This document shows, piece by piece, positions 2,196 through 64,000 of a DNA stretch of 64,000 nucleotides. The stretch comes from Cetorhinus maximus. Its lineage: Eukaryota. A program made the translations under genes and the position numbers. Numbering within the stretch: the first letter of the stretch is position 1; the number at the start of each line of letters is the position of its first letter. The stretch is from positions 15,376,001 to 15,440,000 of the forward strand of contig NC_135908.1 in NCBI RefSeq assembly GCF_964194155.1. Reading direction: 5' to 3'. The notes beneath the pieces were generated by a model, which searched no databases, was not told where the DNA came from, and worked only from the letters and a program-made list of their open reading frames with translations.

Positions 2196-2824
2196 CTGTG
2201 GGGGAAAAATACATTGCAATAATGGAATTTTTACAATTCAGGTCACAGGTTCGTGTTAAAAAGGTGTTAGTACTTCTCAAAACAAAGCGCACAGTTTGAA
2301 CTGTTGAATTAAACCAGTTCAATACCAGGTGAGATTAAATAGGCAAATTCAATACCAGGCTTCCAAAAGACATGTTTCAATCTCTAAAAGGAAAAACTAC
2401 AACTGAAAACGAAGGTAGAGAGATTATAATTAAGCTAGCCTTGAATTTAAAATGCTAAAAGCACACCTCTAGATTTTAAAAAAGTGGAAATCACTTTGGA
2501 CAAGTACAACTAAATTGAACGCATTGTCTCAAGTTTATAAACAAACATCTCGATTTTTGCACAAGTCTCACCCGTTGGGTGCAAAACTTCAAATGCAGAG
2601 ACCTAAAGTGAGGTTGTGAGGTTGACAAAAATTTGTGGGCCTGTTGATTGCAATATCAATGTTTTAAGGTCAAGGTCTTTGTAGGTCACACAAGGCTTCT
2701 CTCCTGTCCGCTCCTATTTTTAAGGGGTGGACGAGGAAGGGGTCCTCAACTTTGGCAGCATATCCCTTTACAAGGCCCAGGTAGGAGGAGAGCTAATGTG
2801 GTTCAGTGAATAGTGCTTGTGCTC

Positions 2825-3230
2825 CAAGCTTCACTAAAGTCCTGGGAAATCCCAATCCAGAGACTTGAGCACAAAAATCCAGGCCAACATACCAGCACCG
2901 CACTAACGGAAATGCTGCACACAGTTGGAGGTGCCATTTTTTTGGATGAGATGTTAAGCCGAGGACTCACCGGCTCTCGGGTGAGCAGAAAAGCATCCCC
3001 TTGGCACAATTTGAAGGAGGGAGTGAGAATTCAGCCTGGCCAAAATTTATCCCTTAAGCAACACCCCAAATCAGTATCTGATCATATTGCTATTTGAGAG
3101 ATCTTGTGTGCCAATGGACTGCCACTTACCCCTGCGTTACAACAAAGATGACACTGCTAAAAGCACTTGAATGGCTGCAGAGAGCTTCTGAACGCCTTGA
3201 AGCTGCGAAAGGCACCAAGACTATTGTTCT
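2825..3230 (+). mobile_element. tRNA-head SINE (DeuSINE-like)
   Basis: cccaatccagagacttgagcacaaaaatccagg...gctgcacacagttggaggtgccattttttggatgagatgttaagccgagg, shared with 44330 and 45200. Confidence 0.65.
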
Positions 3231-8856: not shown

Positions 8857-9436
8857 TGAGCGAGAGGAAGAGGGGGAAAAGGACAGAGCGAGAGGAAGAG
8901 GGGGAAAAGGACAGAGCGAGAGGAAGAGGGGAAAAAGGACAGAGCGAGAGGAAGAGGGGAAAAAGGACAGAGCGAGGGGAAGAGGGGAAAAAGGACAGAG
9001 CGAGGGGAAGAGGGGAAAAAGGACAGAGCGAGAGGAAGAGGGGAAAAAGGACAGAGCGAGAGGAAGAGGGGAAAAAGGACAGAGCGAGAGGAAGAGGGGA
9101 AAAAGGACAGAGCGAGAGGAAGAGGGGAAAAAGGACAGAGCGAGAGGAAGAGGGGAAAAAGGACAGAGCGAGAGGAAGAGGGGAAAAAGGACAGAGCGAG
9201 AGGAAGAGGGGAAAAAGGACAGAGCGAGAGGAAGAGGGGAAAAAGGACAGAGCGAGAGGAAGAGGGGAAAAAGGACAGAGCGAGAGGAAGAGGGGGAAAA
9301 GACAGAGCGAGAGGAAGAGGGGGAAAAGACAGGGCGAGAGGAAGAGGGGGAAAAGACAGGGCGAGAGGAAGAGGGGGAAAAGACAGGGCGAGAGGAAGAG
9401 GGGAAAAAGACAGAGCGAGAGGAAGAGGGGAGAGAG
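8857..9436. repeat. 28-bp purine-rich minisatellite, ~20 copies
   Basis: Unit AGAGCGAGAGGAAGAGGGGAAAAAGGAC repeated head to tail. Confidence 0.95.
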
Positions 9437-49807: not shown

Positions 49808-50896
49808 CTGCATCTACCCTTTCGAGCCCTGTGAGAATTTGGCCTGTTTCACTGAGCCTGCCTCTCATTTTCCTAAACTCTAGAGAAGACAGGCCCTGTC
49901 CCCTCAACCTCTCCTCATAGGACAGTCCCGCCATCCCAGGAACCAGTTGATTTAGCAAAAGGGCGTCATGGTTGTAATAACTTGATGAGGCAGTAGGTCT
50001 AGTGAAGAAAAGGCTGAGCTTTATTTAGGAGATGCGTAGAGGCGCTTGCACTCTAGACCTGATCGCTCCATCGGAAGCCCCGCCCACAGGATTACCCACG
50101 CAATAAGCTTATTGGTCGAAGCCCCACCCCGCAATCATATCAAATGCTGAGTGGCTGACAGGAGGGAGGGACAATACACTCGCTCCCCCTTTAAATTCCT
50201 TATGTTTACAATTTTAAAAAAATGTCAGAAACACCAACAAACATTTGTACGGTTTCTGGTGATTGCAAATCAAGTCTTTGAGAAGCTGAAACAGGCAGAT
50301 TCTGGCGTTGCTGGTAAAGAGAACAGTGTTTAACCATGCTCCCGATGTCACTGTCTATTCCTGGCCAGCAGACGCAGCTACACAGAGATAAAAACAAAAA
50401 GCTAAAAGCTACTGCGGATGCTGGAAATCCAAAACAAAACAAAAACAGAATTACCTGGAAAAATTCAGCAAGTCTGGCAGCATCGGCGGAGAAGAAATCA
50501 ATCAACGTTTCGAGCCTCCATGGCCCTTCGGCAGAACTGCAGCATAGTTTCAACAAGGGAGAAATATAAATTGGTTTAAGGTGGGTGGGGGGCGGGGGGG
50601 AAGAGACACATTGAGGGTGTGGTGTGAGCAGATAATAATCAAAAGATGTCAGAGACAAAAGGGTCAAAGAGGTGTTGAAGGTGGTGGTCTTTGTCTGAGA
50701 AAAGTGCTAATTAAGAATGGAAAACAGGATATTCAAAGTACAGCTCTAGTGGGGGTGGGGTGGAAAGACTAAAGGTTTTAGTTTTAGATTTAAAAATAAT
50801 GGAAATAGGTGGGGAAAGAAGAATCTATATAAATTATTGAAAAAAAAGCGGGTGGGGGGGGAAAAGAAATGGGGTGGGGATGGGGGGAGGGGGAGT

Positions 50897-51869
50897 TTAA
50901 GATCTAAAGTTGTTGAATTCAATATTCAGCCCAGAGGGCTGTAAAGTGCCTAGTCGGAAGATGAGGTGCTGTTCCTCCAGTTTGCGTTGGGCTTCACTGG
51001 AACAATGCAGCAAGCCAAGGACAGACATGTTGGCAAGAGAACAGGGTGGAGTGTTAAAATGGCAAGCGACAGGGAGGTTTGGGTCTTTCTTGCGGACAGA
51101 CCGCAGGTGTTCCGCAAAACGGTCGCCCAGTTTGCGTTTGGTCTCTCCAATGTAGAGGAGACCGCATTGGGAGCAACGAATGCAGTAGACTAAGTTAGGG
51201 GAAATGCAAGTGAAATGCTGCTTCACTTGAAAGGAGTGTTTGGGCCCTTGGACGGTGAGGAGAGAGGAAGTGAAGGGGCAGGTGTTGCATCTTCTGCGTG
51301 GGCATGGGGAGGTGCCATAAGTGGGGGTTGAGGAGTAGGGGGTGATGGAGGAGTGGACCAGGGTGTCCCGGAGGGAACGATCCCTACGGAATGCCGTCAA
51401 GGGGGGTGAAGGGAAGATGTGTTTGGTGGTGGCATCATGCTGGAGTTGGCGGAAATGGCGGAGGATGATCCTTTGAATGCGGAGGCTGGTGGGGTGATAA
51501 GTGAGGACAAGGGGGACCCTATCATGTTTCTGGGAAGGAGGAGAAGGCGTGAGGGAGGATGCGCGGGATATGGGCCGGACACGGTTGAGGGCCCTGTCAA
51601 CGACCGTGGATGGAAAACCTCGGTTAAGGAAGAAGGAGGACATGTCAGAGGAGCTGTTTTTGAAGGTAGCGTCATCAGAACAGATGCGACGGAGGCGAAG
51701 GAACTGAGAGAATGGGATGGAGTCTTTACAGGAAGCGGGGTGTGAGGAGCTGTAGTCGAGGTAGCTGTGGGAGTCGGTAGGCTTGTAATGGATATTGGTG
51801 GACAGTCTATCATCAGAAATTGAGACAGAGAGGTCAAGGAAGGGAAGAGAAGTGTCAGAGATGGACCAT
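50897..51869 (-). CDS. Mirror copy of the truncated PLE ORF
   Basis: Same peptide from WSISDTSLPFLDL to the stop. The N-terminal residues of the listed 339-aa ORF come from reading through the inversion junction. Confidence 0.8.
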
Positions 51870-51871
51870 CT

Positions 51872-52906
51872 CGTCGGGACCTGGAAAAATTTATTAATTT
51901 TGCTTCCAATCTCCACCCCTCCATCATCTTCACATGGTCCATCTCTGACACTTCTCTTCCCTTCCTTGACCTCTCTGTCTCAATTTCTGATGATAGACTG
52001 TCCACCAATATCCATTACAAGCCTACCGACTCCCACAGCTACCTCGACTACAGCTCCTCACACCCCGCTTCCTGTAAAGACTCCATCCCATTCTCTCAGT
52101 TCCTTCGCCTCCGTCGCATCTGTTCTGATGACGCTACCTTCAAAAACAGCTCCTCTGACATGTCCTCCTTCTTCCTTAACCGAGGTTTTCCATCCACGGT
52201 CGTTGACAGGGCCCTCAACCGTGTCCGGCCCATATCCCGCGCATCCTCCCTCACGCCTTCTCCTCCTTCCCAGAAACATGATAGGGTCCCCCTTGTCCTC
52301 ACTTATCACCCCACCAGCCTCCGCATTCAAAGGATCATCCTCCGCCATTTCCGCCAACTCCAGCATGATGCCACCACCAAACACATCTTCCCTTCACCCC
52401 CCTTGACGGCATTCCGTAGGGATCGTTCCCTCCGGGACACCCTGGTCCACTCCTCCATCACCCCCTACTCCTCAACCCCCACTTATGGCACCTCCCCATG
52501 CCCACGCAGAAGATGCAACACCTGCCCCTTCACTTCCTCTCTCCTCACCGTCCAAGGGCCCAAACACTCCTTTCAAGTGAAGCAGCATTTCACTTGCATT
52601 TCCCCTAACTTAGTCTACTGCATTCGTTGCTCCCAATGCGGTCTCCTCTACATTGGAGAGACCAAACGCAAACTGGGCGACCGTTTTGCGGAACACCTGC
52701 GGTCTGTCCGCAAGAAAGACCCAAACCTCCCTGTCGCTTGCCATTTTAACACTCCACCCTGTTCTCTTGCCAACATGTCTGTCCTTGGCTTGCTGCATTG
52801 TTCCAGTGAAGCCCAACGCAAACTGGAGGAACAGCACCTCATCTTCCGACTAGGCACTTTACAGCCCTCTGGGCTGAATATTGAATTCAACAACTTTAGA
52901 TCTTAA
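51872..52906 (+). CDS. PLE ORF C-terminal part (RT thumb, Cys linker, GIY-YIG endonuclease), 5'-truncated
   Basis: Open frame RRDLEKFINFASNLHPSIIFT..LPFLDL..YKPTDSHSYL..CPRRRCNTC..NLVYCIRCSQCGLLYIGETKRKLGDRFAEH. The RT catalytic core is absent. Confidence 0.85.
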   Translation, partial: RRDLEKFINFASNLHPSIIFTWSISDTSLPFLDLSVSISDDRLSTNIHYKPTDSHSYLDYSSSHPASCKDSIPFSQFLRLRRICSDDATFKNSSSDMSSFFLNRGFPSTVVDRALNRVRPISRASSLTPSPPSQKHDRVPLVLTYHPTSLRIQRIILRHFRQLQHDATTKHIFPSPPLTAFRRDRSLRDTLVHSSITPYSSTPTYGTSPCPRRRCNTCPFTSSLLTVQGPKHSFQVKQHFTCISPNLVYCIRCSQCGLLYIGETKRKLGDRFAEHLRSVRKKDPNLPVACHFNTPPCSLANMSVLGLLHCSSEAQRKLEEQHLIFRLGTLQPSGLNIEFNNFRS

Positions 52907-53263
52907 ACTCCCCCTCCCCCCATCCCCACCCCGCTTCTTTTCCCCCCCCACCCGCTTTTTTTTCAATAATTTATATAGATTCTTCTTTCCCCACCTATTT
53001 CCATTATTTTTAAATCTAAAACTAAAACCTTTAGTCTTTCCACCCCACCCCCACTAGAGCTGTACTTTGAATATCCTGTTTTCCATTCTTAATTAGCACT
53101 TTTCTCAGACAAAGACCACCACCTTCAACACCTCTTTGACCCTTTTGTCTCTGACATCCTTTGATTATTATCTGCTCACACCACACCCTCAATGTGTCTC
53201 TTCCCCCCCGCCCCCCACCCACCTTAAACCAATTTATATTTCTCCCTTGTTGAAACTATGCTG

Positions 53264-53304
53264 CAGTTCTGCCGAAGGGCCATGGAGGCTCGAAACGTTG
53301 ACTG
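53264..53304 (+). ncRNA. Minimal type I hammerhead-ribozyme-like motif (variant core); mirror copy at ~50499-50539 on minus
   Basis: cagtt-CTGCCGA-a-gggcc-atgga-ggctc-GAAA-cgtt-gactg: stem I, stem II and a palindromic ACGT stem III. The core deviates from CUGANGA. Confidence 0.55.
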
Positions 53305-55726
53305 ATTTCTTCTCCGCCGATGCTGCCAGACTTGCTGAGTTTTTCCAGGTAATTCTGTTTTTGTTTTTTTTTGACGCAGCTACACGCCTGCATCTTCATC
53401 TTCGATATGCCTGGGTGCGCACTGTGGAGCGCTGCCAAGAGTGACTCCCTACCCTGTGATGGGACCACGACTCTTGAACCCCACATCAAAATTCCATCTT
53501 GACAACTCAGCTTAGTGTTCCTGGAATAAAATGGCGGCAAGTCATCAGGCACAAGAGTTCTTGGCGCTCCTTGTAAAACAAAGTCTTTGACTTTTGACAG
53601 TACCAGGTCTCGGTTCATCCATTTCTTGATCTGAGTGACACATATAGGTGATGACTCCAAGAAACGGAACAATAACACTAACACTTGTGGAACGGGTGTT
53701 TGACATGACTACCCGGTAATGGAAGATGATTAAGTGCGTCTGCATTGGCTATATGCGAGGCAGGGCAGTACCTGAATGTGTATTCATAAGCTGATAGCGT
53801 CAAAGCCCAGCATTGGATTCTCGCTGGAGCTATCAGCCGAATAGCTTTGTCTTCACTGAACAACCCTGTCAGCGGCTTATGGCCAGACGCAATTGTAAAA
53901 TGTCATCCGAGTGGGTATTGGTGAAGCTTCTTGACATGAAATACAACCGACAATCCTTCTTTTTCCACCCTAGAGTAGCCCCTTTTCAGTTTGGGAAAGT
54001 GTTCTTGAAACATAGCCAATGGGTCTTTCTGATCCGTCTTCCATTTGATGTGATCAAACGGCTCCTACTCCATATGGAGAAGGATCACACTTCAACACCA
54101 GCTCTTTAAATGGGTCATAACGTTCCAACAAGCATGATGAACGATGCAGTTTCTTCGCTGTTACAAAGGCTTCTTCTTCCTTTGAACCCCATAACTAGCA
54201 GTGGGTCTTTCTCAGCAACAAGTGTAGTGGTGCCAGTACAGTGGATGGATCAGGTCAAAAACAGCTGTAGTAATTAATTATAGCTAGGAAAGATTTAAGC
54301 TCTGTCACATTACAGGGTGATGGTGCATCTTTAATTGCTTGGACCTTGTCTTCAACAGGATGCAACCCCATAGCATCCACTCTGTGACCCGGGTAGGTTA
54401 CCTCCGATTCTTGAAATGTGCCTTTTTCTCACTTGAAACGCACACCAGCTTCCATAAATCTACTCAGCACTTTCTCAAGGTTGGCTAAATGTTCAGCTTC
54501 CATCAGCCCAGTGATGAGGATGTCATCTAAGTACACGACCACACGTGGAAGTCCTTGCAGGAGACTCTCCTTGGTGCGCTGAAAAATAGCGCATGCTGAT
54601 GAAACTCCAAAAGGTAACTGGGTGTACTGGGAGAGGCCTTTATGTGTATTAATTGTCATGTATTCTCTTGACGTGCTATCCAATCCCAATTGTTGATGGG
54701 CATGACTCATGTCTAGCTTTGTACATGACTTGTCTTGGGGTACAAGTCATCGATTCTAGGAATGGGGTATTTGTCTAACTTTGCACTTCGTTGACCTTCA
54801 GTTTGTAGTCGCCGCACCTACTTATAGTCTGGATGGCTTGACAGCTGGGACTATGGGTGCGGCCGACTCCAAAAACTGGACAGGCTGAATTATTCCCGGG
54901 TTTTCCAACCTACACAACTCTGTTTCCACTTTTTCTTTTAGTGAGCAAGGCACTGGCCTGGGCCTGGGTGAAGTGCGGTGTTGCCTGGGGATCAACGTGC
55001 GTTTCAGCTTGCACATCCTTCAGTTTTCCCCAATTCGTCTTGAAAAACAATGTCACTTCTTCAAGAGCCTCTGGAATTCCATCGGACTTCAAATGGAACA
55101 TTTCTGACCAGTCAGGTTTTATCTCCTGCAGCCAAATCTCGACCTAGAAGACTAGGTCCCTCCCCCATTAAGGTTATCACAGGCAGTTGGGCTGTCTGTT
55201 GTGTGTAGCAGACTGGGGCAGCAGCTACGCCTTTGACCTGAATGGATTCTCCAGTGTAGGTTCTCAGCTTGGCGGAGGTCCGCTCCAATGTCAATGGCCG
55301 AATCCCTTCACTGAGGCACTTGAACGTCTGCTCCCCAACTACAGTAGCTGAAGCGCCAGTAACCACCTCCATCTGCGGCTGCTGGCCATTCACTGGCACC
55401 GTCACTGTAATGGGCCCAGATTTAACAGCAGTCACATGTTGCAGAGAGTATACGTCAGTAGTAGCAGCCTCACCCTTTGCTGTCTCAGTTAGCTCAATCA
55501 GATTCATTTGTTGTCTTTCTGTTTGCCTATCTGTAATGATTGTAAGTTAAACCATTTCTTACTGTTATGGGGATCATGTGACTGTATAGACCAATCAGCC
55601 AATCTTAGGGGCAGAGCTTTTTAGCCTCGGTCTTGGAGCAAGTGTGTAGTCTCCTCCGAAGTCTGTTAATAAAGTTTACTGCTTCTTACAAGAAACCCGT
55701 CCTGCACTCTCCAAGTTTATTCCAGC

Positions 55727-55739
55727 TGGTGACGAGGAT
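55727..55739 (+). promoter_or_regulatory. Primer-binding site (tRNA-Ser-like) of Gypsy B
   Basis: TGGTGACGAGGAT, 2 nt after the 5' LTR, one mismatch from TGGCGACGAGGAT (complement of the tRNA-Ser(GCU) 3' end). Confidence 0.75.
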
Positions 55740-56069
55740 AAATAGTGCATCACCTTGCCCCGCCACTGTGAGTATTCCGATATTTTAAGGGAAGAACAGA
55801 AAAGAAGTATACTCACCAGCAATGCCTCTCTTTGGCAGCATTGACCCGTACGTCTCACCCATTGAGGACTGGAGTCAGTACTTTGAGTGATTAGGATTCT
55901 ATTTTGTAGCCAATGAAATAACAGCGAAGGAGAAACAGAGGGCAATTCTCCTGACTGTCCGTGGGAGCAAAACCTGTAACCTAACCCGTAATCTCACAGC
56001 TCCAAACGCGCCAAATTCCAGATCCTTCACCGAGCTAGTCGACCTCGTGAAAGGGACATTTTCAGCAAA

Positions 56070-56309
56070 AACTTCTTTAGCCAGAGAGTGGTGAATCTAT
56101 GGAATTCATTGCCACAGAAGGCTGTGGAGGCCAGGTCATTGAGTGTATTTAAGACCGAGATAGATGGGTTCTTGATTGGTAAGGGGATCAAAGGTGACGG
56201 GGAGAAGGCGGGAGAATGGGGTTGAGAAACTTATCAGCCATGATTGAATGGCGGAGCAGACTCGATGGGCCGAATGGCCTAATTTCTGCTCCTATGTCTT
56301 ATGGTCTTA
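56070..56309 (+). mobile_element. CR1 3' fragment inserted in Gypsy B gag
   Basis: ttctttagccagagagtggtgaatctatggaattc...gctcctatgtcttatggtctt interrupts the gag frame. Confidence 0.85.
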
Positions 56310-57123
56310 AATCCTCAGTGATCATGCAAAGATTCAAGTTTAACTCTCGAGTAAGGGCTCCCGATGAGTCGATTGCAACGCACATCACGAAGTTAAAACA
56401 GTTAACGGAGCAGGGTGACTTCGGCGATACTTCAAACGACATGATGCGAGGTCGTTTAATTTGTGGGATAAGTGACGATGCCATTCAGCGCCGTTTGCTT
56501 GCAGGGGTTGAGATAGACCTGAAGCGCAGCATGGAGAGAGCGCTAGCAATGGAGAGAGCGCTGAGAGGGCCTCACAGGCTTTGCAGAGTGAGCAACATGG
56601 CCGCTGTTTCACAGTTAGGGCGGGAACCTGCCACCGGGCGTGGCGCCAAGATCAGGGAGGTTACTGCGAAGCGGGACATGGTCCCCACCGCTAGAAACAT
56701 AAAAAGAAACGCTGGAAGCAGCTCACCAGTAACCCAGAAGTTAAAGTGTTACCGTTGTGGGGGGAATCATGCACCCGAGGTCTGCAGATTTAAAGAGGCA
56801 GAATGTCACTAGTGCCACAAAATAAAGGCATGTTGTTAAACAATGCAGGACTCCATCAAGGCAGCCATTCAGACATCAGGTCACATGAAGTGAAATGCAC
56901 ACTGTAGATGAGCCAGAAGTCACTGAGGCTGATGTTTATTCCCTACACAATCTGAAGGCCAGGAAAACTGAACCAATCACTCTTACACTTCTAGTGAATG
57001 GGAAGCCTCTGCTCATGGAGGTGGACACAGGAGCATCGACTACAGTGGTGGGGATAACACATCTTTAAATATCTCAGAGAAGGTACCCAGCCATTGAGTT
57101 TGGAGAAAACCGCTGCTCAGTTA

Positions 57124-57463
57124 CATAGAAACATAGAAACTAGGAGCAGGAGTAGGCCATTTGGCCCTTCGAGCCTGCTCCGCCATTCATTATGACCATG
57201 GCTGATCATCCAACTCAATAGCCTGCTCCCGCTTTCTCCCCATATCCTTTGATCCCTTTCGCCCCAAGAGCTATATCTAACTTCTTCATGAAAGGATACA
57301 ATGTTTTGGTCTCAACTACTTTCTGTGGTAATGAATTCCACAGGCTCACCACTCTCTGGGTGAAGAAATTTCTCCTCACCTCAGTCCTAAATGGTCTACC
57401 CCATATCCTCAGACTGTGACCCCTGATTCTGGACTCCCCCACCATCGGGAACATCCTTCCTGC
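57124..57463 (-). mobile_element. CR1 3' fragment inserted in Gypsy B protease region
   Basis: catagaaacatagaaa tail and the peptide RGHSLRIWGRPFRTEVRRNFFTQRVV. Confidence 0.88.
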
Positions 57464-58015
57464 AAAAACATATTGAGGAGAAGCAATACAGGTGAAAGGT
57501 ATCACCTCTATGCCTGTATCGTACAGACAAACAGATGACCCAGTTGCCAATGATGGCTGTAACGCGGGAAGTACCGAGCCTTCTGGACCATGATTGGTTG
57601 AAGGAAATCAAACTAAATTGGTCAGAAATTTTTCAGGCCAGGACAGGAGGAATACCAGGGTTACTAAAAAAAAAATGACAGGGTATTCTGAGGGGAGTTG
57701 GGAAAAATCAAAGGTCTGCAAGCCAAGATAAACGTGGACCATGAAGCAACACCCCGGCTTTTAAAGGCAAGACCTGTGCCTTACACTCTGAGAGAAAAGA
57801 TTGATACGGAATTATGTCGTTGGGAGAAGTTAGGGATAATACAGCTAGTCCAGTTTTCAGAATGGGATGCACCCACAGTCCCTGTACTAAAGCCAGACCA
57901 AACCATTCGCATCTGTGATGATTATAAATTAATGGATGCAAAATTAGACAAGTACCCAATCCCAAAGGTTGAAGATCTGTATGCTAAACTCACAGGAGGA
58001 AGATCCTATGCCAAA

Positions 58016-58116
58016 CTAAAATGGCGGCGCGGCGCCGATCGGGTTCGCGCCCGCCCCCGCCCGCTCCTGCAAGACCCCCCCCCCACCTCCAAACAGGGTT
58101 GGGGGGGAATATTTTT
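58016..58116. mobile_element. Fragment of the GC-rich TIR family replacing part of Gypsy B RT
   Basis: taaaatggcggcgcggcgccgatcgg matches 61755-61780. The RT segment normally between YAKL and VYLD is missing. Confidence 0.6.
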
Positions 58117-59817
58117 CCATTGTGTACCTGGACAACGTCTTAATCACAGGATCCACAGGAGCAAGAGATTTTTAGAGGCTGGCGTTCATTTATGAAAGGA
58201 AAAGTGCACCTTCCAGGCAAAGGAAGTTGGGTATCTGGGTCATCGAGTGGATGCCCGAGGATTGCATCCATTAAAGGAGAAAGTCAGGGCAATCAAGGAA
58301 GCTCCCTCTCCTGTCAACGTCACGGAGATCAAGTCTTTTTTGGGCATGGTAAACTATTACGGTCGAACTTTGCCTAATCTATCTACAGTAGCCCCTTTGC
58401 ATTTATTATTGAAGAAGAATCACAGATGGTCCTGGAAGGCACAGCAAGAGGAAGCCTTCACAAGAGTCAAGAAACTTTTACACTGGCCATGTCTGCTGGT
58501 GCACTATGACCCGTCTAAGGAATTGATGCCTACTCGTGATGGATCTCCCTATGGAATAGGAGCACACGATGGATGATGGATCTGAAAGACCAGTAGGATA
58601 TGTATCCAGAACCTATTCTGCAGCTGAGGAAGGTTACTCGCACATTGAAATAAAGGGCTTATCTATCGTATATGGAGTAAAGAAGTTCCATCAATATTTA
58701 CACTTCACCATAGCGTTAGATCACAAACCACTGTTAGCGTTGTTTAATGAAGGTAAGGCCATCCCACCTATAGCTTCTGCTAGAATTCAAAGATGGGCTT
58801 TAATTTTATTAGCATATGATTTACAGTTTTATGCACCGTCCTGGTGTGCAGATAGCAAATGTAGACACCCTCAGTCGTCTCCCTTTGCCCAGTAGTATTA
58901 CACACATACCAGTACCTCAAGAGGTAGCACTTGCATTAAATTTCCTGGACTCCTCACCAGTCTGCACGAGACAGATAAAGAATTGGATGAATCAGGATCC
59001 AGTTTTTAGCAAGAGTCCGTGAACAAGTGTTTCAAGAATGGTCAAATGCACAAGTCCTTGAAGAATTGAAACCATTCTTTGCACAGATCTGAACTGATTT
59101 GTCAAGATGGTATCTTATTATGGGAGCAAGGGTCATTATCCCTGTCCAAGGAAGAGAACCATTCTTAGAAGAACTTCATAGTGCGCACCCTGGTATTTCA
59201 AAAATGAAGATGCTCACATGAAGTTATATCTGGTGGCCAGGTATAGACAGTGATATAGAAAAGATGGTGAGACACTGTCTCCAGTGTCAGCAACAGCAGA
59301 AGTTGCCCGTTTCAGCTCCACTGCATCCGTGAGAGTGGCCTGGTCCACCCTGGGTTAGACTACGTATGGACTATGTCGTTCCATTTCTAGGTACCATATT
59401 TCTGGTGATTATCGAGGCACATTCCAAATGGATGTACGTGTTTGAAGTGAGATCACCCACTCTGCAACCATTGAAAACCCGCGCCAGAGTTTCAGCGTTC
59501 ATGGTTTACCTGAAGTTATTGTGTCAGACAATGGCATAGCTTTCACTGGCACTGAATTCCTATGATTCGTGAACCTAAATGGGATTAAACACGTCAGAAC
59601 AGCACCGTATCACCCCTCTTCTAATGACTTGGTGGAAAGAGCGGTGACAAACCTTTAATACAGGCATGAAGAAACAATGAGAGGGAACATCAGAAACTCA
59701 AATTTCAAGATTCCTGTTCAGCAATTGCACAAATCCTCATGTGACCACTGGTTTAACACCTTCAGAATTGTTAATGAAGCGCCGACTTAATACGAGATTG
59801 AGTCTAGTATTCCTAAA

Positions 59818-60155
59818 TACCACAGGGATAACTGGCTTATGGGCAGCCAAGCGTTCATAGCGATGTCGCTTTTTGCTCCTTCGATGTCGGTCCTTCCTAT
59901 CGTTGTGAAGCAGAATTCACCAGGGGTTGGGCTGTTCACCCACTAATGGGGAACGTGAGCTGGGTTCAGACTGGTTGACACAGGTTAGTCTCCCTCTACT
60001 GATGATGGTGTCGTTGCAATAGTAATCCTGCTCAGGACGTGAGGAGCTGCAGGTTCAGACATTTGGTGCGTGTGCTTGGGCTGAGGAGCCAATGGTGCGA
60101 AGCTACCACCTGTGGGATTATGGCTGAACGCCTCTAAGTCAGAATCCTGCCTAAA
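59818..60155 (+). pseudogene. 28S rRNA 3'-region fragment (diverged), peptidyl-transferase region through the sarcin-ricin loop
   Basis: taccacagggataactggct...gccaagcgttcatagcga...ccttcgatgtcgg...gcagaattcacc...gttcacccactaat...gaacgtgagctggg...aatcctgctcag...gaacgcctctaagtcagaatcc are conserved eukaryotic LSU motifs, here with scattered substitutions. Confidence 0.95.
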
Positions 60156-60167
60156 AGTTGCACCAGG

Positions 60168-60198
60168 AATCCTGCTCAGTGCGAGAGGAACTGCAGGT
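60168..60198 (+). pseudogene. Second copy of the 28S sarcin-ricin loop hairpin
   Basis: aatcctgctcagtgcgagaggaactgcaggt versus canonical aatcctgctcagtacgagaggaaccgcaggt. Confidence 0.85.
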
Positions 60199-60271
60199 GG
60201 AGAGAAAGGGAAGGTGGAGAGAAACCAGGGGAGTCAGAAAATGAATCATGACATTTACAGTAAAGGTCGAA

Positions 60272-60411
60272 CAGCTCACGTTCCCTGTTAGTGGGTGAAC
60301 AGCCCAACCCACGGTGAATTCTGCTTCACAACGATAGGAAGAGCCGACATCGAAGGAGCAAAAAGCTATGAACGCTTGGCTGCCCCCGCTGAGCTAGTTA
60401 TCCCTGTGGTA
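60272..60411 (-). pseudogene. Inverted 28S rRNA fragment
   Basis: Reverse complement of 59818-59962, continuing into inverted Gypsy sequence to 60468. Confidence 0.93.
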
Positions 60412-61159
60412 TTAGGGAATATTAGACTCAATCTCTTATAAAGTCGGCGCTTCATTAACAAGTCTGAAAAGAGAGAGACAGTTTTTGTACAAAATTTTGC
60501 AACTGGACCGAGATGGGTCCCTGGTCCAATGGTCTCTGAAACAGGACCTGTATCTTATCAGGTCGAAGTGGAAATCGGGATTGTTAGGAAACACGCAGAT
60601 CATCTCGGAAGTTGAGAAACCCTCCAAAAGCCAGTTAATCCACCTGAAATCAAAGTTGAAACTTTGACACCTGAGGTGCCAGATCGACAAAGAGTAGACA
60701 TACCGGATATCTCTGCTGAAGTAAATCATTCTGATCTGCCAGTGTCCAGGGATGTCCCTGTGGCTGCAGTTCCTGTGCATGTCGATCCAATGGAAGAACC
60801 TCCTGTCGGAGAGTAGCGTCGCTCTACCAAAATCTGAAAACCCCCTCAAAGGCTGAATTTATAATGGTATGCACTATATATAATTGTACATAATATGGAT
60901 TCAGATGTTTTGCAAATAAGATGGTAAAACTTTTGTAAAATAAGACAGCAAAGGGGGAGGAATGTAATAATTGTAAGTTAAACCATTTCTTACTGTTATG
61001 GGGATCATGTGACTGTATTGACCAATCAGCCAATCTTAGGGGTGGAGCTTTTTAGCCTTGGTCTTGGAATAAGTGTGTCGTCTCCTCCGACGTCTGTTAA
61101 TAAAGCTTACTGCTTGTTTCAAGAAACCCATCCTGCACTCTCCAAGTTTATTACATTAT

Positions 61160-61856
61160 GGCCAGGATTTCCCGGTGTCCGCTCACCGACGCGTGAAATG
61201 ATACAGGATGACATCGGGCGGAACTCCCAACGTTACCCCGCCCCATTTCAATTTTCAGGTCATTGGGGGATCAACCGAATCATCAGTGCGCCCGCCGACC
61301 TGTCAATGGCCAATCGGAGCCATTGACAAAGTAGTTAAAGTAATTAATGGACCTGCCCGTCCAACCTTAAGGTTGGCGGGCAGGCCGGGAGCCCTGGCAG
61401 GCTTCAGAGAAAGCATGGAACCCTCATCCACGGGCGGGATGAGGTTTCATGTAGGTTTTAACATTTTTAATAAAATTGTCAATAAAAGTGATGGACATGT
61501 CCCAACTCATGAGACAGTGTCACATGAGGGGACGTGTCAGGGGAATTTATTTCTTCTGTTTTTAAAATTCTTTCATGTGGAGCCGATCTCCCTGAGGCCG
61601 CACTTAACCTCAGGGAGATGAGTGCGCTATTTCCTGTGCATGTGCGAAGGAGCGCACTCCCGGCTCAGGGATTCCCCTCCCCGCCTGCACAGGGAGTGCA
61701 CAGCGCTGCCTTGCGGACGTCAGGCTGGGCGGGCCTTAATTGGCCCACCCACGTAAAATGGCGGCGCGCCCCCGATCGGAGGCGCGCCTCCACCCGCCTG
61801 CTCCTAAACATCCCCTCCCCCCACCCCCCCCCCCCGAGGAAGGGAAAATTCTGCCC
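61160..61856. mobile_element. GC-rich non-autonomous TIR element, 3-bp TSD TAT
   Basis: Ends GGCCAGGATTTCCC...GGGAAAATTCTGCCC, with TAT at 61157-59 and 61857-59. Confidence 0.82.
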
Positions 61857-61947
61857 TATCCTTTGTTCTGCACCTGCCTAACCAGGTGTCCTTTCCTGTG
61901 GCAATAATTACATTTTGCCTCTTTGAATCCAGAAATGTCTGCTCCAC

Positions 61948-62599
61948 GGGCAGAAGTTTACGTCCTGCGGGCGGACGCAAAATCACGCGAGATGATGCCA
62001 GGCGAGCGTCCCGACGCCATCGTGCACTCGCACGACATTTCATTTGGCGGGAGTGCACAAATTTCGGAAGCGCGCCCACCGACAATTAAGCCCATTAATG
62101 GCGCAATTGTCTGTGATTTTTCGTGGCCCGTCCAACCTTATGGTTGGCGGACGGGGCGAATCGGCCGGGCGGCCTTTACATTTTTCAGCAAATCTCATCC
62201 AAGGGCGGGATGAAATCTCCGTAACAAATAAAATCAAAATAAATATCCGGGGGCGGCATTTTTACGAGCTGTGCTTTCAGGTGCTTGGTTGTGATGCGTG
62301 GACATTTTTTTTGCAGCTTTTTAGAGCTTTATTTCATTATTTGCAGGTCTGCAGCTCCCTGAGGCAGCTGCCTGCCTTCGGGGAGCTCTCTCTCGCACAG
62401 CGCTCACCCACGCCCGCAGTGACATCATCGCCCGCCCTCTTACCCCAGCAGCGCTGAGCTTTTCAGCGTGCGTTTCACACTGGCTGTCCATTCATTGGCC
62501 AGTCAGGGTGAAATCACAGACGGGGGCTAATCGTGGTCGGGGGGTGTGGGGTCCATTTCCTGGCCACTCCAGGCGCCTGATGACCAAAAAATTCAGGCC
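61948..62599. mobile_element. GC-rich non-autonomous TIR element, 3-bp TSD CAC/CAT
   Basis: Ends GGGCAGAAGTTT...AAAATTCAGGCC. Removing it restores the host gag frame CYRCGGNH-GADISGFKEAKCNYCHRKGH. Confidence 0.82.
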
Positions 62600-64000
62600 C
62601 ATGATTTCCTCCACATCTGTAGCAAATACATATCTTATTGGCCGACGTGTTACCATTGGGCTTCCTAAGGTTTCGTGTGGTGGGCATTGAATTGTCTTTA
62701 AAACCTGCTGTTCTGTTTTTCACACCACGCTCAGTGGCAACACGGAGTACGGCGCCACTCTCCACGCGCTGCAAAGCCTGCACGTCGTTTGCGGCACTTT
62801 CCATAGCGAGAGGAAGCCGCCCGGGCGCGCTCAAAACCGATGTCGGATTTGGCTAGCAAGCGGCGCTGTATGGCGCCATCCTTGGCTCCGCCTACACGTC
62901 TGTCCCGGGGCACGTCATCCACGGCATCCCCAGACTCACAGTATTCGGTTAACTGTTTCAGATTCGCCCCGGAGGTGGCGATGGACTCTCCCGGAGCGCG
63001 AACTCTCGAACTGAACCTGAAGCGCTGCATGATGCGCGGGCGGTTTGGGCTGAAAGCGCGATTTCACGGGTTCCGGTAACTCACCGTACGACTTGGAACT
63101 GGCCGCTTTCGGGGCAGTCAAGTTTCCAATCAGGTCACGCGTTTTGCCTCCACTGGCACTCAGCGGGATAGCTTGACGTTTTTTTTTCAGCCGTAATCTC
63201 GTTCTCCACGAAATAGAACTCGAGTCGCTCGACATACTGACTCCGATCTTCAGCGTTAGCATCGTATGAATCGATTCTTCCAAACAGCTGGTAGGTATGG
63301 TTCAACTTTGTTTTACTCACATCAGCCAGGAGCAAAATACTTGTTGCCAAATGTAATAACTTGATGGAGTAGCAGGTTCGGTGAAGAAAAGGCTAAACTT
63401 CATTGAGGAGACGTGCAGAGGTCCTTGCACGTTAGACGCGGTCCTCTCTGTCGGAAGCCCCGCCCACAGGATTACCCGCACAATAAGCTCATTGGTCGAA
63501 GCCCCCCCCATCGCATCACATGATGAGTGATTGCCAGGAGGGCGGGCCAATACACCGAGTTGCTACAATGGTGAAATCGAGTTCCAACCTACTGCGTCTG
63601 GCTTCCCTCCCTTTTTAAAGGAGATTCTGTTCATTGATTCTCCTAATTATGAAGACTTGTGCCCTATAATTATAAACAAACCGATGTTTCCCATGAGCGA
63701 TTGCACTTAGGTGACATTCAAGATGGGTTAATCAATCAGTGTTTCTAACATGTAGGGCAAATTACAGACAAGTTTACCACCTTGGATGTTGACTGTTAAA
63801 CCCCAGTTCACTTACAAAGCTAGCCCGAGCCAGGATTTCTCATGTTCACAACTCACCATCAACAAACCTGAGCTAATATACTATTTGTCACCTCCCTCAG
63901 CCCTATGACCCGTGTTGGGGGGTGGATTCAACTTCATGGAAAATTATGAAAAAACTGAAAAGAAAGGAGAGCCCAGGAGAGGCTGTTAAAGTCTCCAGAA

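Follow-up and report, generated by a model that had tools for sequence, protein, structure and literature searches.

One dead copy of a Gypsy retrotransposon, here named Gypsy B, carries a captured piece of 28S rRNA in the 64,000-nt stretch of Cetorhinus maximus DNA that was analysed (the window; G000:C31:15376001-15440000, from an assembly of 3.99 Gb in which C31 measures 25.4 Mb). The insertion is real, apparently single-copy and decaying, involved several template switches, and adds one more case to kinds of event already known. The reading that we prefer, with a probability of about 0.5, is microhomology-guided templated repair of a break after the element had landed, followed by a fold-back inversion; the product is probably functionless.

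Anatomy of the 28S insertion

Gypsy B resides within an older Gypsy of opposite strand, Gypsy A, of which nine other copies present the empty site without Gypsy B. Its insertion duplicated CTATC, and the 3′ copy was subsequently split by a TIR element, past which (after 61856) the Gypsy A sequence picks up again. The 28S cargo is flanked by the two LTRs of an element that integrated with a target-site duplication, as is the case in LTR-mediated retroposition chimeras. The features, in window coordinates, are as follows.

49973-50179 and 63352-63555: LTR-like ends of Gypsy A, 80% alike
55527-55531: 5′ target-site copy CTATC of Gypsy B
55532..55724, + strand: 5′ LTR of Gypsy B, 193 nt
55725..59817, + strand: decayed interior of Gypsy B with gag-, RT-, RNase H- and integrase-like frames containing stops and shifts
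55725..59817: LINE and TIR-element pieces nested within this interior
59761..59962, + strand: left arm of the inverted repeat, 57 nt of Gypsy and 145 nt of 28S
59818..60158, + strand: 28S piece 1 from the 3′ domain region (Rfam model ~2820-3150), sense to Gypsy
60157..60198, + strand: 28S piece 2, 42 nt from within piece 1 copied again after a 143-nt jump back
60195..60207, + strand: 13-nt duplicate of downstream Gypsy sequence, by comparison with uninterrupted copies
60208..60270, + strand: native Gypsy integrase-tail segment (63 nt) separating the two insertions
60272..60468, - strand: right arm, inverted copy of the Gypsy/28S junction (197 nt)
60473..60962, + strand: remaining integrase tail of Gypsy B, 3′ spacer and purine-rich tract
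60963..61155, + strand: 3′ LTR of Gypsy B
61160..61856, unstranded: multi-copy TIR element inside the 3′ target-site copy of Gypsy B, with a 3-nt duplication TAT

In the Gypsy B interior Pfam recognised RT_RNaseH (E 6e-18). The gag and integrase labels are presumptive, given by motif resemblance; Pfam returned no match for the pieces so labelled, and four of the seven short broken frames were without one. A LINE piece nested in Gypsy B at 56069-56305 is young, being 96-98% identical to five other copies.

The first-pass annotation had described a sense 28S fragment of ~340 bp in the integrase tail and an inverted recurrence of 59761-59962 at 60272-60468. Both were confirmed. Rfam matched LSU_rRNA_eukarya at 59766-60173 (+, E 6.7e-63) and at 60250-60396 (-, E 6.1e-20), the first fragment extends over 59818-60158, and the two arms align at 87% with indels of 8 nt and 3 nt. 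The main parts had thus been recognised correctly, while 28S piece 2 and the 13-nt Gypsy duplication had been missed. The inverted block contains the Gypsy/28S junction, which bears out the claim that capture preceded duplication.

Six joins make up the scar. The left join of piece 1 overlaps Gypsy by 1 nt (T), and piece 2 overlaps by 2 nt (GT) on its left and by 4 nt (AGGT) with Gypsy on its right; these three joins, with overlaps of 1, 2 and 4 nt, are the cleanly readable ones (rough P 0.014), and microhomology across the joins amounts to 1-4 nt. At the fold-back priming join the inverted microhomology is 0-2 nt, varying with the placement of a later small deletion. The right arm takes the place of ~13-14 nt of Gypsy and is followed by ~4 additional nt at 60469-60472. 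Its 197 nt were templated 309 nt upstream, and the nearby template and the short deletion are those of a fold-back event.

The anatomy was read against 48 other family copies, 43 of which display the uninterrupted segment, the other five giving no displayed empty junction; by this comparison few Gypsy bases were lost here and 13 were duplicated. The cargo therefore interrupts the Gypsy ORF region, whereas retroposition chimeras replace part of it. Both 28S ends are truncated, poly(A) is absent, microhomology is short and the pieces are serial, all as in break insertions of either the RMDR or the non-RMDR type. The sense orientation of the cargo and the microsimilarity at its joins are shared with retroposition chimeras, although the overlaps lie below the 6-bp median given in PMC5131818.

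Copy number and other 28S scraps

The 28S-bearing Gypsy B appears to be single-copy in this genome. The search for siblings was non-exhaustive, the best 40 candidates of each query being scored, among which a close sibling would rank first. None of the 48 other family copies had rRNA within 1.5 kb. A 76-nt junction query matched in full at the two arms only, and 38 non-self matches ended at the join (best 40 of 53 candidates). A 23-nt variant pattern with one mismatch permitted matched the two arms only, a 31-nt loop pattern with three mismatches permitted matched this locus only, and the LTR form with the 12-nt gap described below was absent from 38 other LTRs (best 40 of 1492 candidates). 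Junction, variant and LTR searches thus revealed no sibling copies of the kind left by secondary retroposition among the best 40 candidates each, and family, junction and variant searches gave no dispersed copies with the same rRNA join such as Cassandra, Ajax or SINE28 possess. The idea of an rRNA-carrying master element or mobile family accordingly found no support, and the simpler alternative offered with it, a one-off scar, is favoured by the searches.

A decayed 28S pseudogene was considered as donor and rejected: none better than rDNA occurred among the best 40 of 1549 candidates, none was found via the variant patterns or within 10 kb of flanking sequence at each end of the window, and the scrap L093 has only two sites in common with the cargo.

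Three narrow patterns found five further dispersed 28S scraps of 59-438 nt, none of which has an inverted repeat or lies within Gypsy B sequence proper. Two of the five break otherwise colinear LINE copies, namely L119:1378-1710 (333 nt; 10 nt of the LINE lost) and L120:1472-1530 (59 nt; 3 nt duplicated), so that patching with 28S in place does occur in this genome. In L119 the LINE RT frame is antisense to the 28S on both flanks, and in L120 it is probably so as well. The antisense case speaks for patching in place, because switching templates while copying the RNA of the element itself would not produce that orientation. The other three scraps are L116:1430-1594, with a LINE adjoining on its 3′ side, L093:1485-1923 and L121:1417-1598.

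Divergence, timing and substitution bias

Aligned to the species' own 28S, as had been recommended, piece 1 differs from the rDNA at 33 of 336 sites (89% identity over 59818-60158), the reference being identical across the compared region in 28 of 29 fetched units. This corresponds to 9.8% (CI 6.9-13.5, five CpG transitions included), or to ~8.6-9.2% after dropping two to four sites that resemble older 28S states. Three variants shared by the arms had been regarded as non-canonical. Two of them are indeed absent from all three dispersed relics, and the third, tatcGttg, is present in two of the three relics covering the site and is probably an older 28S state rather than a diagnostic one. At L002 positions 1584 and 1752, non-rDNA letters are common to two of three old control scraps at each site, which suggests that the rDNA itself may have altered after the old scraps were copied.

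The arms differ by substitution in 15 of 194 columns (7.7%). For their Gypsy part the first reading of about six differences in 61 nt holds as to the differences, the aligned columns numbering 57 (6/57). Since the arms have five derived changes in common and have drifted by ~3.9% each, the inversion was either later than the capture or has been partly converted. The arm-arm value of 7.7% plus two indels lies near the LTR-LTR difference and below the full neutral age, for which conversion or a later origin is as good an explanation as selection for pairing. Piece 2 against piece 1 was discarded as a clock, as 42 nt are too short and three of the differences cluster at the join.

Folding of 59761-60468, another of the proposed checks, predicts a structure of -430.8 kcal/mol (z -27.75 vs 20 shuffles). 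Of the 205 columns of the predicted duplex, 179 are Watson-Crick and 7 are G-U pairs, 8 are mismatched and 11 have a gap; perfect runs reach 29 bp. Compared with today's 28S, the antisense arm has one exact run of 25 nt, all others being at most 19 nt. Judging from the letters of the two arms, there seems to be no sign of upkeep of the hairpin. Nor was a trace of A-to-G editing found in the arms: although the arms contain 103 A, the + strand has just two arm-private A>G changes, both of them in rRNA sequence and neither in Gypsy sequence.

The LTRs of Gypsy B differ at 14 of 193 sites (7.3%, CI 4-12), precisely the count given at first, and the median in comparison copies is 12.7% (7.8-17.0; 13 of 20 fetched copies, the other seven being without an LTR pair). 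Both LTRs have a private 12-column gap and four substitutions that are rare among 45 other LTRs, and none of nine control pairs had a rare gap common to both LTRs. The common gap points to one of three histories: the element re-inserted from a parent that had already mutated, the RT made an error, or the LTRs were converted where they stand. For the TIR element in the 3′ target-site copy, three-way comparisons give a divergence of 7.1%, and its distance to the 19 closest fetched copies is 11.4% or more; the Gypsy B interior is diverged by 7.3-7.7%. Dating by LTR-LTR difference is unsafe here because of the private gap in both LTRs and the 7%-diverged TIR element; the suggestion that chimera and element are of roughly equal age is supported, its dating from the LTRs is not. 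The simplest reading of the timing is ~7% of residence with LTR conversion, and the LTR clock was probably reset in place by conversion, LTR gene conversion being a process described in PMC4921805. The TIR element gives no strict lower bound on residence, as a cut-and-paste element can move late with an old divergence. The 28S capture is about as old as Gypsy B, and the timing data do not separate capture from integration.

Transitions in the 28S piece are biased, with 16 A/T-to-G/C changes against 8 reverse, as compared with 23 against 59 in the five control scraps (P 0.0013), whose C>T count is slightly raised by search patterns that each require one change (two at a CpG). The ratio of W>S to S>W changes is 2.83 for Gypsy A (0.45-0.87 in nine others), 1.03-1.49 across estimates for Gypsy B (0.41-0.86 in 55 others, compared with 1.03), 1.20 for the TIR element (0.23-0.82 in 19 others) and 2.0 for the 28S piece. 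The underlying rates are 0.117 (W>S) and 0.041 (S>W) in Gypsy A and 0.110 and 0.055 in the 28S piece. Across 54300-63560 (C31) the elements have the top ratio of their families, the older element being the most biased. The bias of the 28S piece is mostly regional; its A/T-to-G/C excess (19/172) lies above the Gypsy B rate (P 0.008) and is only partly explained. Regional bias of this kind may stem from GC-biased gene conversion on a small chromosome, a process for which a literature search gave no shark-specific paper. Other causes were tried and rejected. ADAR hyper-editing does not account for the A>G/T>C excess, since both strands are affected alike (8 A>G, 8 T>C) and the duplex is not enriched in such changes, and error-prone copying is unneeded, as the host Gypsy A has the same bias at this locus. 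The lower ratio of Gypsy B (1.03 vs 2.83) was dropped as a sign of re-mobilisation, since that of the TIR element is likewise low.

Proposed break repair, its alternatives and known systems

From the anatomy, the joins, the divergences and the single copy within the searches made, we infer a repair route, the type of template, an order of steps and conversion as follows. Soon after integration, a break would have opened in the integrase tail of Gypsy B. The free end may have primed on 28S rRNA, its cDNA or rDNA and copied 340 nt, after which copying would have slipped back and re-copied 42 nt of 28S. The end would then have annealed to the far side via AGGT and, after another 13 nt of copying, been re-joined. 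At a distance of 63 nt a further break, of the same episode or of later date, could have folded back onto the other strand; the folded end would have copied 197 nt, the first junction included, before joining the far end with the loss of ~14 nt. Afterwards the locus would have decayed neutrally, its substitutions biased locally towards GC; gene conversion is likely for the LTRs and possible for the arms.

Break repair is favoured because Gypsy was interrupted, as opposed to the ORF replacement seen in the chimeras of PMC5131818, and because the join overlaps fall within the 1-7 nt of microhomology reported by Ono et al. 2015 (PMC4516963) for RT-product-mediated (RMDR) and non-RT capture at double-strand breaks. 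The interruption of colinear LINEs by two of five other 28S scraps, one of them antisense to the RT frame, points the same way, as do the failure of the junction, variant and LTR searches to find a sibling or donor among the best 40 candidates and the arms free of an editing trace. An age acquired in place is favoured by the TIR element, which in divergence (7.1%) and substitution ratio (1.20) resembles Gypsy B. Several points count against break repair. The 28S is sense to the element, as capture by RT needs and as repair would give with a chance of 1 in 2; at 9.8% it is not measurably younger than Gypsy B, and a patch could come later. The private LTR gap could stem from one sloppy RT event or from a re-mobilised parent, the TIR element is no strict lower bound on residence, and the part of the A/T-to-G/C excess left over by the regional bias also weighs here. 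In addition, PMC4997597 describes a 'patch repair' in which retroviruses use host RNA while reverse transcribing.

An alternative that the first-pass annotation had raised is switching of the Gypsy RT onto co-packaged rRNA. Here a break in the Gypsy RNA would have halted the RT, which stuttered and passed over to 28S rRNA before returning; the chimera would have integrated a single time, the inversion being a later DNA event. Sense orientation, a capture as old as the element, microhomology at the joins and the presence of both LTRs with a target-site duplication all agree with it; one RT error during that event could account for the gap common to the two LTRs, and the mechanism is known for mRNAs (PMC5131818) and for host RNAs in retroviruses. 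It is not the best fit since hardly any Gypsy sequence was replaced, unlike in the chimeras published in PMC5131818, and since the 28S scraps in LINE copies share the same anatomy, one of them in antisense. As rRNA is intronless, with no intron in this piece, an RNA template is not demonstrable by intron loss. We regard RT switching as the main rival, at a lower probability than break repair. It is unlikely that an older chimeric parent, after decaying for some time, was re-mobilised once to this site with inversion and has since been lost. The coincidence of the LTR-LTR (7.3%) and arm-arm (7.7%) values, both below the 28S divergence when taken per copy (P 0.0008), would suit such a parent, and so would the LTR gap with its four rare substitutions, unseen as a gap in the nine control pairs, and the five derived changes common to the arms. 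Against it, no parental or sibling junction, variant or LTR was found among the best 40 candidates, the TIR element is diverged to the degree given above and carries the local bias, and the hairpin is without an editing trace.

Transcription of the hairpin from the 5′ LTR might yield regulatory small RNAs in antisense to 28S rRNA. The strength of the predicted duplex, its long perfect runs and the one 25-nt antisense run identical to today's 28S would suit this, and antisense rRNA siRNAs have been described in nematodes and plants. The arms, however, drifted like neutral DNA (15 substitutions and two indels), the other antisense matches are short, nested insertions separate the 5′ LTR promoter from the hairpin, and RNA runs contained at most 0.09 of the words in a weak and uninformative search; we consider such a role most unlikely. 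A combined scenario, in which the Gypsy RT copied 28S in the germ line, the element re-inserted once with a fold-back and a hairpin read from the LTR yields anti-28S small RNAs in a vertebrate, is very improbable. An assembly artefact from a fold-back or chimeric read is scarcely credible: the joins are those of the assembly and the best public run, with 0.26 of the words, is uninformative either way, but in such an artefact the arms would be almost the same and the 28S would match rDNA exactly, and here the arms differ at 15/194 plus two indels and the 28S is 10% from rDNA. The lowest probability of all goes to membership in a mobile rRNA-bearing Gypsy family. Families of rRNA-bearing elements exist, with 5S in Cassandra and Ajax and 28S in SINE28 (PMC10946416), and the genome searches score the best 40 candidates only; yet rRNA occurs in none of the 48 family copies, the 38 non-self junction matches (best 40 of 53) end at the join, and the variant patterns match this locus only.

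Compared with known systems, the insertion resembles the captures of PMC4516963 in its truncated ends, lack of poly(A), 1-7 nt microhomology and serial pieces. It differs in being natural and old, with 28S cargo in a Gypsy interior and a subsequent inversion; the main text of PMC4516963 does not mention rRNA. Tan et al. 2016 (PMC5131818) reported RT-made chimeras that replaced part of ORFs in all 15 Drosophila cases, with a median microsimilarity of 6 bp. Sense cargo between LTRs, microsimilarity at the joins and possibly several switches are common to those chimeras and to Gypsy B. Their cargo is mRNA, it replaces an ORF part and the copies re-transpose, whereas here few bases are lost, 13 are duplicated and one copy was found; rRNA goes unmentioned in the text of that paper. 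The inverted copy is like the fold-back or MMBIR-like insertions of PMC11724301 in its local inverted template, short or absent far-join microhomology and lengthened inverted repeat. The yeast events described there range from 2 to ~150 bp with a 41-nt loop, unlike the 197 bp with 309 nt between the arms found here. Primate 28S rRNA/LINE-1 chimeras (bioRxiv 10.1101/2025.02.02.635956) likewise fuse 28S to a retrotransposon (50-482 nt, median 269, 83% sense), but they are reported at LINE 5′ ends and via target-primed RT, and not within an LTR element. Cassandra, Ajax (5S in LTRs) and SINE28 share rRNA-derived sequence within a retroelement. According to PMC10946416 these are multi-copy and the 5S is kept as an LTR promoter; the 28S of Gypsy B is internal, decayed by 9.8% and present in one decaying copy, and is not a kept rRNA module in an LTR or head. 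A narrow look at the literature found no report of an LTR element capturing rRNA through RT and none of a 28S piece inside a Gypsy interior.

On the most likely reading, the locus would be a well-preserved record of germ-line break patching in a fish, with an rRNA donor. It would also provide a local example of a reset LTR clock, in a genome where 28S scraps recur as patches. The locus would gain in weight if an LTR element were proven to have captured rRNA through RT, or if the hairpin made antisense rRNA small RNAs.

Two other repeats of the window are recorded here as observations in their own right. Gypsy A is broken by a perfect inverted repeat of 1440 nt (50430-51869 / 51934-53373; 100% complementary, 64-nt spacer), a Penelope-like 3′ end with a weak GIY-YIG match (22.5 bits vs a cut-off of 22.6), which is either an insertion of very recent date whose ends mirror each other or an artefact of assembly by fold-back. 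A tandem array with a unit of ~56 nt occupies 8858-9431, its adjacent units being ~96% alike.
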